A program made the translations under genes and the position numbers. DNA of 36,095 nucleotides from Candidatus Micrarchaeota archaeon. GTDB taxonomy: Archaea > Micrarchaeota > Micrarchaeia > Norongarragalinales > Norongarragalinaceae. Each line of letters starts with the position of its first letter. The first letter of the stretch is position 1. Below the pieces are notes generated by a model. The model had not been told where the DNA came from and did not search any database. It worked only from the letters and a program-made list of their open reading frames with translations. Positions 28,440 through 32,020 of the stretch are shown in pieces. The DNA lies in contig JBBIMI010000008.1 of the NCBI GenBank assembly GCA_037444485.1, positions 1-36,095 of the forward strand, given 5' to 3'.

Positions 28440-28553
28440 AGCCTCTGAGGGGATTTGAACCCCTGACTTCGTGCTTTACGGCGTCACGCCACGCATTTTT
28501 TGAGGGGACGCTGGTTACCATGCACGCACTCTGCCAGTCTGAGTTACAGAGGC
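28440..28553 (-). tRNA. tRNA-Thr(GGT) with 40-nt canonical intron at 37/38 (28476-28515)
   Basis: Acceptor GCCTCTG/CAGAGGC-T; anticodon stem CGTGC/GCACG; BHB central helix ATGG/CCGT. Confidence 0.9.
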
Positions 28554-28891: not shown

Positions 28892-29013
28892 GCAGGGGTG
28901 GCCGAGACCGACGTAAACGCGAATGATTCCGGCGGCGGCAGCCTGGTCAAAAGCGCAGGACTTAAGATCCTGTGAGGTTAGCCTCTTCGAGGGTTCAAAT
29001 CCCTTCCCCTGCA
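28892..29013 (+). tRNA. tRNA-Leu(TAA) with 35-nt intron at 15/16 (28907-28941)
   Basis: Acceptor GCAGGGG/CCCCTGC-A; CAGGA-CTTAAGA-TCCTG; variable arm GAGG-TTAG-CCTC; BHB central helix GCCG/CGGC. Confidence 0.9.
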
Positions 29014-29091
29014 CTCTACTCTTAGAAGCGTGTTGGAAGCAGGAAGAGAGTAAAAGAGTACTCGTTTCACGTTCCCAGCTTTCGAAGTCAT

Positions 29092-29733
29092 TCAAGCAAT
29101 TCTCTCGTAATAATCTAGATTTTGGCTTACGCTCTTCGCGTAAGCGTAAGGCTTTGCTTTGCCTGAAGAAACCGGGCAAAACATTCTATCGCCAGCGCTC
29201 GCGGTGCAGTGAACGTTTCGAGGCCCAGCGTTGTAAGCGCAAAAACCGTAAAACAAGTTGTTGTCACATAATTGCAAGTATTTGGCTAAAATCTTGGCGC
29301 CGCAGTGGACGTTCGCGTCCACGTTCCACAACTGGTTTGACTCGAGCCCGCACTCGCTGCGGCCAGTTGCAGGCAATATTTGCATTAACCCGACTTCGTA
29401 ATCCCCACCGAGTGAAGTCGCGTCAAACCCGCTTTCGCGTTTTATGATCGCGCAAATTGCGTAAGGGTCTATCTTGTAAAACTCGGCTGCTTTTTGAATA
29501 ATGGAATCCACCATGCTGCCTGGAATGAAGCCATTCCTCGTTTTTACTGTCGCGGGCGCGCACTTGACAACTTCTTTCCCAGTAGACGGCGGCTTTAAGT
29601 CGGCAGGCAGCGGCTTTACGACGCTTGGCAAGTAGTCAAAGCGAATCACGAGCTCGTTGAAGCCAGCTGCTGAAAAATTGTTCAACAAAAGCAAGAGCAC
29701 GAGCGCAACTGCAAGCGCTTTAGTCGATTGCAT
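29092..29733 (-). CDS. Secreted lytic transglycosylase (SLT / GH23 lysozyme-like domain)
   Basis: Signal peptide; AIIKRESGF (catalytic Glu-Ser), GLMQILPAT, NVHCGAKIL and AYNAG motifs in SLT family order. Confidence 0.92.
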   Translation of the reverse strand: MQSTKALAVALVLLLLLNNFSAAGFNELVIRFDYLPSVVKPLPADLKPPSTGKEVVKCAPATVKTRNGFIPGSMVDSIIQKAAEFYKIDPYAICAIIKRESGFDATSLGGDYEVGLMQILPATGRSECGLESNQLWNVDANVHCGAKILAKYLQLCDNNLFYGFCAYNAGPRNVHCTASAGDRMFCPVSSGKAKPYAYAKSVSQNLDYYERIA

Positions 29734-29789
29734 GAGGAATGAAGAGAATGAGGAAGTTAAAAAAGATTTTGAAAAAAAGAAAAAAAGCG

Positions 29790-30076
29790 TTTTACTGCCC
29801 GCGCTTACTTAATCGAACTTGCTTTATCGATCATACTTTAATAAGCTACGCTTAAAGGTGAAATTCCAGTAATTTTAGTATGCTGCCCAGCTTGCGTTGA
29901 CGGAAACCATTGTCTTTGCGCGTATAACGCGAGGCGTCGAGGCCCGCGCCGCCCACGCGAACGAAGCCAACCGCCCCGCAGGCGCCTGCAAAAACCGGCA
30001 AACAAGCGAAGCGAAACAATTACAAATATTAGGGTTGATTCGTCCCGCGACTGAACTCGCGGAATTTCTCAACCAG
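29790..30076 (-). ncRNA. Putative structured non-coding RNA of unknown family
   Basis: Multiple helices with many G-U pairs on the minus strand, an 8-bp long-range pairing and a downstream oligo-T tract; no convincing ORF. Confidence 0.45.
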
Positions 30077-30099
30077 ACATGTTTAGTTACTGTGTTTAG

Positions 30100-30429
30100 T
30101 TACTGGATGTACTTCTTGAGCAATTCGACAGCGCGTTTTATGCTTTGCGCAATTTGCCGTTCGCTCTTCGCGCCCGAGCATATCACCTTGCCGTTCTTGA
30201 AGAGCAAGAGAGTAGTTCCGATTTCCTTTAACCGCATTATCGCGCCCGGAAATTGTTCCGGTTCGTACTCGACGTTATTCACTTTCATCGCGATGTTGAA
30301 TAAGTCGAGTTCCACGTTCAAGTTCGCGCTCGCCACGATGTTTTCGACTTTGAAGCTCGTATTGATTTTCCTGCGAACTCCCTTCCTGGTTTTAACGATT
30401 TTTGTTCCACCCACTTCGCCGCCCACCAC
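30100..30429 (-). CDS. Single-repeat TATA-box-binding-protein (TBP)-like protein
   Basis: One TBP repeat: ENIVASA, YEPEQFPG, LLLFKNGKVICSGAK; in-frame stop upstream at 30487-30489; own TATA-like TATTAAAA at about 30456-30463. Confidence 0.9.
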   Translation of the reverse strand: MVGGEVGGTKIVKTRKGVRRKINTSFKVENIVASANLNVELDLFNIAMKVNNVEYEPEQFPGAIMRLKEIGTTLLLFKNGKVICSGAKSERQIAQSIKRAVELLKKYIQ

Positions 30430-30489
30430 CTGAGAAAAAGCCGATGAACCAGCCTTTTTAATAGTTAGAGTTGTGCTTGCAAGTGTTTA

Positions 30490-30506
30490 AAAACCTTTAT
30501 ATATTG
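30490..30506 (+). promoter_or_regulatory. Probable BRE-TATA of the rpl21e operon
   Basis: aaaaacc-tttatata. Confidence 0.45.
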
Positions 30507-30644
30507 CTTTCAGGAACAAGTAATAGGAAGGGTAATAGGAAAAAGAGAAAAGCGCGGGGGAAGCTGGCGGCAGGAAACACAACGAATTTTTTCTTGCACT
30601 AATTCTCTCAGTCTACAAAAAGAGGAGAAAAGGGGTTTAGAGGC

Positions 30645-30923
30645 ATGAAAAAATCTCACGGCGGTTATTCGAGCAGAAGCAGGCTGTTGAAAGCAAAGTC
30701 GCGCTTGAGCGCAGCAAGACACTTGCAAGAGTTTAAGGAAGGCGAACGCGTGCGCATAGACGTTAACCCTAGTTTTCTGCACGGCAAGCCAAACACGCTT
30801 CGCTTTAACCGCAGGGTAGCCCGCGTAGTGCGTAAGCAGGGAAGCGCTTACGTAATCGAATTGAATGACTTGGGCAAGAAAAAACAACTTGTTCTTTCAA
30901 ACATTCACTTAAAAAAACTTTGA
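30645..30923 (+). CDS. rpl21e: 50S ribosomal protein eL21
   Basis: SHGGYSSRSRLLK, FKEGERVRIDVNPS, DLGKKKQLV..IHLK. Confidence 0.96.
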   Translation: MKKSHGGYSSRSRLLKAKSRLSAARHLQEFKEGERVRIDVNPSFLHGKPNTLRFNRRVARVVRKQGSAYVIELNDLGKKKQLVLSNIHLKKL

Positions 30924-30975
30924 TTCAACTGGTTAAACAACGACGGCATTAAAACCGTTAGAGGTGTTTTAAGGC

Positions 30976-31314
30976 GTGAAAGTTATTTCTGAAAAAAATG
31001 TTTCACTGCGCGAAGCGCTTTCACTCTTGGAAAAAAGAAAGAAGGATGGCGAGCTTGGTTACGAACAACAAAACACGCTGGACTACCTGCAAGAGTTTGC
31101 TGCCCTCAACGAGAAAGACTCTAATGCGCTTGAAAAAGAACTCTGCGGGTTAGGTTTGACTGAAGAGCAAGCAATTTCTATAACAAACATCATGCCTAAA
31201 AAAGAGGAAGAAGTGCGCGCGGTTCTCGCCGGAAACAAAACCATTACTCTAGAACTCGTGAAAAACATCCTCAAAACCGTTAAGAAGTACAAGCCAGAAA
31301 AAAATAGGGAATAA
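30976..31314 (+). CDS. rpoF: RNA polymerase subunit F (Rpo4)
   Basis: LGYEQQNTLDYLQEF, ITNIMPKKEEEVRAV; L21e-rpoF-DUF655-ksgA synteny. Confidence 0.93.
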   Translation: MKVISEKNVSLREALSLLEKRKKDGELGYEQQNTLDYLQEFAALNEKDSNALEKELCGLGLTEEQAISITNIMPKKEEEVRAVLAGNKTITLELVKNILKTVKKYKPEKNRE

Positions 31315-31337
31315 ACTCAAGCACTCAAGCAAACCCG

Positions 31338-31392
31338 AAAAAACAAAAAACAACAAAAAACAAAAACAAAAACAAAAACAAAAAAACAAAAA
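31338..31392. repeat. A/C low-complexity tract
   Basis: Reiterated aaaaac units between rpoF and DUF655. Confidence 0.8.
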
Positions 31393-31456
31393 TTTGGGGG
31401 GAAAGGAAGAAATTTGTTTGAAGAAAATTTAGGAAAAACAGTGTTGGTGTATAAAA

Positions 31457-32020
31457 ATGTTTCAACGCGAGGAATACGCGATAGTCTTAGACTTTCTACC
31501 GCACGGCAAGGCAGGCGAAGCAGCCCGCGAGCCGGTAGCGCAATTGATAGGCGAAAACAAGTTCACTCTTCTTGAAGCCATCCCAAAGCCGGACGTGAAG
31601 TTAGAGGTCGGCGAACGCGTTTACATTGGGCGCGGCGTGCGCGATAAAATCGGGCGAATTCGCGGGCGAATCAACTTCAGCGATTTGACTAGCGCGGCGC
31701 AGAATGAAGCCAAACGCGCCATAAAACAATTAATCAAGGAACGTGAAGCGTTTTTCGTGGACTTCTTCAACAAAGCTGGACCCATAAACATTCGTGCGCA
31801 CACGCTTGAACACATTCCTTCAGTAGGCAAGAAACACTTGCAAGCAATTCTCGACGCGCGAAAACAAAAACCCTTCGAATCCTTTAAAGACATTCAAACG
31901 CGAGTGCCACACTTGCAGAAAATAGACGAGCTTTTGCTTGAACGAATTCTGCACGAGCTTACAGGCCACGCTAAGCATTACTTGTTCACGAAACCGCCTT
32001 CCAGACACTATGAAGAATAG
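31457..32020 (+). CDS. DUF655 family putative nucleic-acid-binding protein (HhH)
   Basis: EEYAIVLDFLPHG, FTLLE, GERVYIG, RAHTLEHIPSVGKK, PFESFKDI. Confidence 0.93.
   Translation: MFQREEYAIVLDFLPHGKAGEAAREPVAQLIGENKFTLLEAIPKPDVKLEVGERVYIGRGVRDKIGRIRGRINFSDLTSAAQNEAKRAIKQLIKEREAFFVDFFNKAGPINIRAHTLEHIPSVGKKHLQAILDARKQKPFESFKDIQTRVPHLQKIDELLLERILHELTGHAKHYLFTKPPSRHYEE

Follow-up and report, generated by a model that had tools for sequence, protein, structure and literature searches.

A single-repeat TATA-binding protein is the only TBP-domain protein detected in a Micrarchaeota genome and probably works as a homodimer

The window analysed here, a stretch of 36,095 nucleotides from a Candidatus Micrarchaeota archaeon (contig JBBIMI010000008.1), carries a gene for a TATA-binding protein (TBP) made of a single repeat, and this gene is the only TBP-domain sequence detected in the assembled genome. 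Sequence, fold, motifs and locus all place the protein in the TBP family, but it lacks the usual two-repeat architecture. The best reading, to which we would give about three chances in four, is that of a general TBP acting as a symmetric homodimer. It seems that a whole archaeal order relies on a one-repeat TBP for the transcription of all its genes, and an order of archaea without two-repeat TBP will be unexpected to a specialist. To our knowledge, all TBPs studied to date are fused two-repeat proteins; the homodimeric TBP ancestor is a textbook inference, of which we know no living example serving as a cell's own TBP.

The Pfam TBP profile (PF00352) matches residues 25-107 over its entire length (positions 1-85 of 85), with an E-value of 1.2e-28 and 99.2 bits against a cut-off of 22.9. 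The initial annotation, made from the sequence alone, had described one TBP repeat with a basic N-terminal tail that keeps the NIVAS asparagine and both intercalating-type phenylalanines, and all of this is borne out: the protein has N30 (in NIVAS), F60 (in EQFPG) and F77 (in LLFKNGK), none of which varies among the 52 single-repeat proteins that were aligned (52 of 53 single-repeat frames; L044 was left out because the start-codon rule found no start in it). We take N30 to be the minor-groove asparagine, F60 and F77 to be the kink-inducing pair, and the YEPEQ stirrup to be the TFB-binding element. The stirrup, YEPEQFPG, spans residues 55-62, and LLLFKNGK spans residues 74-81. Across the 52 proteins 27 columns are invariant, including N30, Y55-A63 (YEPEQFPGA), L75-F77, G80 and K81.

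Both repeats of archaeal TBPs have exactly the YEPEQFPG motif of the single-repeat TBP. The single repeat is 50-67% identical to the repeats of ordinary two-repeat TBPs, and such proteins crowd the top of a search of 5.8 billion proteins. Its best solved relatives are archaeal TBPs, both repeats of which align to the one repeat (71 and 60 bits for 1mp9). The single-repeat relatives also open on a basic stretch (MAKK..., with 8-25 basic residues), and a close one, 92% identical, carries a hypothetical-protein annotation in the public record. An AlphaFold model of the monomer, made with the 52-row alignment, has a mean pLDDT of 81.8, with values below 50 in residues 1-18 only. Its elements follow the order S1-H1-S2-S3-S4-S5-H2, with strands at residues 26-36, 53-55, 63-67, 72-76 and 81-85 and helices at residues 43-49 and 90-107. 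The model fits one repeat of 2z8u and of 1mp9 at 0.9-1.0 A over 76-80 columns, and TBP repeats overall with an rmsd of 0.9-1.5 A. All 44 Foldseek matches at E<=0.001 are TBPs. The family is ordinarily recognised by two tandem repeats; here there is one repeat per chain.

Table 1. Positions of the single-repeat TBP gene, its elements and its neighbours in the window
Feature	Position	Strand	Basis or remark
Single-repeat TBP gene	30100..30429	-	109 aa from GTG 30429 or 104 aa from GTG 30414
Stop codon TAA of the TBP gene	30100-30102	-	Translation of the open reading frame
The one TBP repeat, residues 25-107	30109..30357	-	Pfam profile, model, alignment
Basic N-terminal tail of the TBP	30358..30429	-	K/R-rich; residues 1-18 of low model confidence
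GGTGGTG, Shine-Dalgarno-like run	30424..30430	-	9 nt ahead of GTG 30414; by eye
TATTAAAAA, TATA-like box, promoter candidate	30455..30463	-	26-34 nt ahead of GTG 30429
TTTTTAAA, second AT-rich box, promoter candidate	30486-30493	-	Sequence only
Ribosomal protein L21e gene, divergent neighbour	30645..30923	+	First gene of the L21e-RpoF-DUF655 cluster
RNA polymerase subunit Rpb4/RpoF-like gene	30976..31314	+	Conserved neighbourhood
DUF655 gene	31457..32020	+	Conserved neighbourhood; independent marker tree

Two starts are plausible for the TBP gene. Translation may begin either at 30414, behind the Shine-Dalgarno-like run, or at 30429, on a leaderless transcript (Table 1). GGTG runs stand 5-10 nt ahead of the start in many TBP orthologues (read by eye), and 104 aa is the length given to this protein cluster in public gene calls. 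In several orthologues 26-34 nt separate a TTTTTAAA box from the start, matching the spacing between 30455-30463 and GTG 30429. Both candidate starts give the same single repeat with a short basic tail. The upstream in-frame stop noticed at first inspection is the TAA at 30487-30489, 19 codons upstream of GTG 30429, which leaves an open frame of 128 codons; the TATA-like box noticed with it has two AT-rich candidates on the same strand.

Some features of starts and promoters were recorded more widely. GTG or TTG rather than ATG is the apparent start of many single-repeat genes (L004, L006, L017, L021, L025, L027-L032 and L040), and promoters of orthologous TBP genes have GTTTTTAAAG boxes 24-34 nt ahead of the start. 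TTTAAA is the commonest non-homopolymer AT hexamer in the 643 upstream spacers of this genome, with 308 copies, 6.7 times the coding rate and about 5 times the number of either TTTATA (62 copies) or TATAAA (57 copies); these counts come from a crude gene set and the positional enrichment is weak. TTTAAA-type boxes are also present in archaea with ordinary TBP. For these reasons we rejected the abundance of TTTAAA as support for a symmetric TBP.

The TBP gene is divergent from a cluster that encodes L21e, the Rpb4/RpoF-like subunit, DUF655 and a KsgA-type rRNA dimethylase. An L21e homologue adjoins the TBP gene at all 20 loci read in the order. The Rpb4/DUF655 neighbourhood, often with L21e, also flanks the fused two-repeat TBPs of other families (L048-L053), and it surrounds TBP in many named relatives as well. 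This shared neighbourhood indicates that the single-repeat gene stands where relatives have their general TBP gene.

Directly downstream of the TBP gene, at 29092-29733 on the reverse strand, a 213-aa protein is encoded. Its N-terminus is hydrophobic and it has a lytic transglycosylase domain of the bacterial SLT type (68.5 bits), which makes it a surprising enzyme in an archaeon that has no murein. The GC-rich spacer between the two genes (29930-30085) holds a dispersed repeat, pieces of which (25-100 nt, 85-100% identity) turn up in about 20 further positions, spread over 12 contigs of this genome. A strong hairpin is present in it as well, with CCCGCGA..TCGCGGG nested within GGTTGA..TCAACC. 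In a public run contigs are interrupted here, and their depth climbs to 110-292, compared with about 25 on either side. A search of the window with Rfam gave two tRNA matches and none in this spacer. One of them, at 28440-28553 on the reverse strand (114 nt, 48.9 bits), was missed by ARAGORN and probably contains an intron; a tRNA-Leu(TAA) gene lies at 28932-29014 on the forward strand.

The genome assembly totals 961,727 bases on 58 contigs; its completeness is 95.07% and its contamination 0.2%. When all six frames were searched with PF00352 at E<=10, the single match was the TBP gene of Table 1. A permissive tblastn search of the genome likewise found no second half; its best other match (E 0.17), at C1:38047-38351, sits within a long frame that by eye resembles a superfamily-2 helicase, and it was rejected as a TBP half. 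Three profiles were built in addition, from single repeats, from the diverged "B" paralogues of sister families and from all repeat types, and were run with --max over the 12,498 frames of at least 40 aa; they too found only the TBP gene, with a next-best E of 0.33. The missing second repeat, first noted for the sequence downstream, is therefore missing from the whole assembled genome by Pfam, tblastn and the three profiles, and the same holds for a full-length TBP. A single TFB gene (C6:29129-29677) was found in the genome, and it encodes the two cyclin repeats typical of TFB. Some 5% of the genome is missing from the assembly and could, for this one genome, hold a second TBP gene.

The single-repeat state is not peculiar to this genome. 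In a first sample from its own family and order, 38 of 41 genomes gave a TBP match at E<=0.01, and the matches above the cut-off all lie in open frames of 101-182 codons. In the order as a whole a match at E<=1e-5 was found in 61 of 68 genomes, namely the genome studied here (G000), 23 of 25 others of its family and 37 of 42 in ten other families. Exactly one match was found in 60 of the 61; the exception is G207, where two matches lie on separate contigs, one in a frame of 134 codons and the other in one of 97. At all 20 order loci that were read there is a one-repeat frame, whose likely start gives a protein of 96-115 aa, mostly beginning with MAKK. Two long frames (182 and 206 codons) consist of open sequence upstream of an ordinary MAKN or MVKK start. 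Seven of the 68 genomes gave no TBP match, and five of them, searched again with the family alignment at E<=1, still gave none. Three of the seven are more than 90% complete. Two of these also have no DUF655, so the TBP region is missing from those assemblies; in the third, the contig ends about 640 bp upstream of L21e.

Selection on the single-repeat TBP gene is strongly purifying. When 20 orthologues were compared across 80 codons of the repeat (190 pairs), dS was estimable in 81 pairs, with a median dN of 0.119, a median dS of 1.51 and a median dN/dS of 0.087 (maximum 0.18); in the other 109 pairs dS was saturated and dN was 0.06-0.15. The initial annotation had named, as an outcome that would speak against it, relatives with a full-length gene at this locus together with relaxed selection on this copy. 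Relatives from other orders do have a fused gene here, but selection is not relaxed.

Data from sequencing runs bear on the assembly itself. One public run contains 93% of the sampled words of 29000-31500. An independent contig of 1,980 nt, with a depth of 22.7, follows 30034-31335 without a break and with one differing letter, and it spans both ends of the gene; a flanking contig has a similar depth of 27.5. The backward joint expected of a collapsed tandem copy was not seen in this one independent set, which consists of Logan contigs, not reads, and tests contig continuity only. A single low-depth joint, from 30201 to 31030 (depth 7 vs 23), has to be counted against the main reading. The gene is almost certainly neither an artefact nor a decaying copy.

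How could one repeat do the work of two? A model of two copies scored 0.72 (0.71, 0.72 and 0.80 in the separate runs) against 0.01 for the best control, passing a mark that is reached by 20 of 30 proteins solved as same-chain pairs and by 1 of 23 solved as single chains; the pass may, as the tool warns, come from likeness to solved TBP structures. It shows compatibility with a homodimer, not binding. The runs share at least 95% of their contacts, with a partner pLDDT of at least 77. The modelled interface comprises residues 20, 22-39, 82-84 and 90-108. In it residues 30 and 31 each meet their own counterpart (30:30, 31:31) at the dyad, the two S1 strands are antiparallel (33 with 27, 35 with 26), and H2 (90-108) packs on F26 of the partner. 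In solved structures of canonical TBP the two repeats meet likewise, at the pseudo-dyad.

A homodimeric, symmetric TBP had been the option named first at the initial inspection, and it is the one best supported by the sole gene, its TBP locus, the purifying selection and the dimer model with its S1-S1' interface taken together. The occurrence of unfused repeats elsewhere in the class (family f14, below) also counts in its favour. The gene would then encode the organism's general TATA-binding protein in unfused form. Two copies would pair through their S1 strands and H2 helices into a two-fold symmetric saddle of ten strands, and this saddle would bind and bend an AT-rich promoter box as canonical TBP does. 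Since each subunit would carry an acidic YEPEQ stirrup, either end of the saddle could take the single TFB, and it would be TFB, by reading the BRE, that sets the direction of the promoter. That promoter direction in archaea is set by TFB and the BRE is the accepted view, and the two stirrups of archaeal TBP are alike. A symmetric TBP has no intrinsic polarity, and it would be tolerable only if BRE and TFB fix the direction; we count this against the main reading. DNA binding, the recruitment of TFB and a role in initiation are thus all predicted for the single-repeat protein, as its dimerisation is predicted by the model.

The wider class shows several TBP architectures. A TBP match was found in 288 of 301 genomes (the counts include G297 and G112, which are flagged unpublished, and no claim depends on either). 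Short one-repeat frames occur in families f13, f15, f16, f19, f23, f24, f26-f28 and f30 and in part of f18, with one to three single-repeat genes per genome in f16; fused TBP genes occur in families f12, f22, f25 and f32. Among 80 named loci of a species-level collection, 29 have one repeat and 49 have two, one runs off the end of its contig and one has a frameshift. In family f14 matches were found in 45 of 46 genomes, exactly two in 41 of them, one in two, three in one and four in one, and two repeats in one frame occur only in G253 among the 91 matches listed. In the closed, one-contig f14 genomes G078, G116 and G223 the two TBP genes are 210-760 kb apart (C1:119095-119340 and C1:881769-882014 in G078). 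Five f18 genomes have two single-repeat genes each, on different contigs, and two genomes labelled Iainarchaeum and Nanobdellati have two unlinked single-repeat genes each. The syntenic A copy and the faster B copy of f14 and f18 form sister groups (support 93; 99 for the B clade). Judging from these sequences, the A/B pair of f14 may be a natural heterodimeric split TBP.

A few genomes combine forms. G106 (L055 and L056) has a single-repeat gene plus a classical two-repeat TBP; so has G253 (C43, C36, C31), with four matches in total. The halves of the classical two-repeat TBPs in genomes of this type are 37-44% identical and have long branches. In family f13, weak TBP matches of 26 bits lie within 273-codon frames (L155, G062:C1:118644-118868; L156, G052:C2:40922-41146) and may represent a TBP-like domain inside a larger protein.

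The fused genes differ greatly in the likeness of their halves. In 53 two-repeat proteins the identity between halves ranges from 30.5% to 91.9%, the highest value being that of P0003. Among the class's own fused genes the values are 74, 70, 68, 67, 60 and 50%, and 44% and 37% for the classical-looking ones. In the unusual fused genes both halves have FPGAI and LLFKNGK, as the single repeats do, in place of the classical FPGL(I/V)YR and LxFxSGK. In trees of repeat units (quick searches, with SH-aLRT support only), the single repeats cluster with both halves of the unusual fused genes and apart from classical repeats. This clade holds 118 of 165 rows in one tree (SH-aLRT 99) and 72 of 102 rows in a second (support 86), from which the fragmentary P0191 and P0215 were excluded; the two trees disagree on where the small-archaeon clade stands with respect to the classical N and C groups. 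A constraint that keeps all 30 first repeats together and apart from all 30 second repeats lowers the log-likelihood by 101 units and is rejected (p-AU 0.0001), so the sequences of the unusual fused genes lack an ancient N/C split. The cause would be either gene conversion between the halves or duplication of a single repeat on several occasions.

One case, in family f15, points to a direction of change. Six of its eight genomes with a match have exactly one, and another genome, G074, has a fused gene (L150, G074:C30, 1165-2085) that nests among the f15 single-repeat genes, as does P0003. At the DNA level the two G074 halves are 82.2% identical to each other but only 69-71% to the single-repeat orthologues of f15, a pattern that fits a recent tandem duplication; P0003 looks like another such case. 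A tree of DUF655 (77 rows, unrooted) has five changes between the single and the fused state, three of them forced by starred branches; one of the five is L081, a fused gene cut by a contig end and scored as single. Because this tree is unrooted, gain and loss look the same class-wide. It is tempting, if somewhat less than an even bet, to regard the single-repeat homodimer as ancestral for the FPGAI/LLFKNGK clade, with asymmetry acquired several times through fusion or unlinked duplication (f14, f18); the window gene would then have retained the pre-fusion state and would not be a reduced TBP. In that case the steps by which TBP has long been proposed to arise would be represented, as a series, among living Micrarchaeota.

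The f14 and f18 pairs raise the question of whether the window gene is likewise one half of a heterodimeric TBP, whose partner is too diverged to be recognised or lies in the unassembled 5%. The initial annotation had listed a split TBP among its options, and part of this stands: sister families apparently have it, with an A-type gene at the L21e locus and, at another place, a B type that evolves faster, and diverged extra copies occur in some genomes (for example G113, 42 bits, and G257, 41 bits). For the present genome, however, no partner appears. The profile of B-type paralogues finds just this one gene, with a next-best E of 4.8, and a partner overlooked in all of the 60 order genomes with exactly one match would need to escape even the Pfam search at E<=10. 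We regard a hidden partner as quite unlikely. A collapsed or truncated gene is most improbable. Fused TBPs with very similar halves do exist in the class (P0003, 92% at the protein level; G074, 82% in DNA), and short-read assemblers could collapse such repeats, an outcome of which the one independent contig set gives no sign: its contig spans both gene ends at flank-like depth and has no backward joint. The same one-repeat frame is found at every one of 20 order loci, whose proteins are 15-30% different in sequence, and single-repeat genes are present in the one-contig genomes G130, G140, G078, G116 and G223. Fused genes with halves 50-74% identical were assembled without trouble, and a dN/dS of about 0.09 is not that of a decaying copy.

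It has also to be considered that the protein is an accessory one, a regulator, a nucleoid protein or an RNA-binding protein, and that initiation proceeds without TBP or through an unrelated factor. The known monopartite TBP-domain proteins are accessory, being non-essential or of unknown role (PMC3597702, in the available part of its text), and the basic tail would suit general nucleic-acid binding. Those proteins, however, accompany a full TBP, which neither this genome nor 60 of the 61 matching genomes of the order was found to have. An accessory paralogue, also among the early suggestions, is unlikely because there is no other TBP in the genome for it to accompany. The protein's closeness to ordinary TBP repeats, its unchanged DNA-contact and stirrup motifs and its place at the TBP locus point the same way, as does the normal TFB kept in the genome; TFB requires a TBP-DNA platform. 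A homodimeric general TBP thus remains the preferred reading.

If so, the window gene would be a natural model of how the fused TBP arose, with other stages displayed by its relatives in their two unlinked single-repeat genes and freshly fused genes. These are natural proteins with which to ask whether a symmetric dimer binds and bends promoter DNA, how direction is set without asymmetry in TBP, and what fusion and asymmetry add. There is also a lesson for annotation, since presence/absence surveys hide this difference in TBP architecture and at least one member is labelled a hypothetical protein. In the full-text literature outside subscription journals we found no single-repeat protein described as an organism's only TBP, and no two-gene or re-fused TBP forms described in Micrarchaeota. 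Single-lobe archaeal TBPs were met there only in PMC3597702 and PMC7221094, whose available parts present none of them as a sole TBP and do not treat Micrarchaeota; single-lobe versions are mentioned in passing by Ravarani et al. 2020 (PMC7221094). As far as their available text goes, DPANN surveys record TBP merely as present (PMC8407392, PMC8204110), and the comparison of repeat distances by Adachi et al. 2016 (PMC4910066) includes no DPANN.

Compared with canonical archaeal TBP (Pyrococcus woesei, 1pcz/1ais; Sulfolobus acidocaldarius, 1mp9; Methanocaldococcus jannaschii, 2z8u), the window protein has the same Pfam family, repeat fold, NIVAS asparagine, two phenylalanines and YEPEQFPG stirrup, at 40-45% identity per repeat to the solved proteins, and its gene shares its genomic neighbourhood with the fused TBPs of related orders. 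It differs in having one repeat per chain, so that a saddle would need two chains, and its symmetry would be exact where that of canonical TBP is pseudo-symmetry. The window protein's N-terminal tail is basic, and it lacks the acidic C-terminal tail of many archaeal TBPs. Its FPGAI and LLFKNGK signature also sets it apart from the classical form.

Several other proteins use the fold in a single copy. RNase HIII and DNA glycosylases have an N-terminal alpha/beta domain of the TBP type, which binds nucleic acid in double-stranded form (PMC3597702 and PMC7221094, available parts). These domains are parts of multidomain enzymes and distant in sequence, and the window protein has no enzyme domain. 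Closer in size are the monopartite proteins of Thermococcales, which, in the available text of PMC3597702, have about 90-100 aa, a predicted TBP fold, strong divergence and no known function, and occur beside a normal TBP. The window protein resembles them as a small single-domain protein with a predicted TBP fold, but it is not strongly diverged, scoring 99 bits on the TBP profile, and it has no companion. The nearest parallel is haloarchaeal TbpA, a single TBP domain close to TBP that is reported to be non-essential and occurs beside several full-length TBPs (Brindefalk et al. 2013, PMC3597702, available part). Both are stand-alone TBP repeats near real TBP in sequence; unlike TbpA, the window protein is encoded by the sole TBP-domain gene of its genome, and the single-repeat state is fixed across its order.
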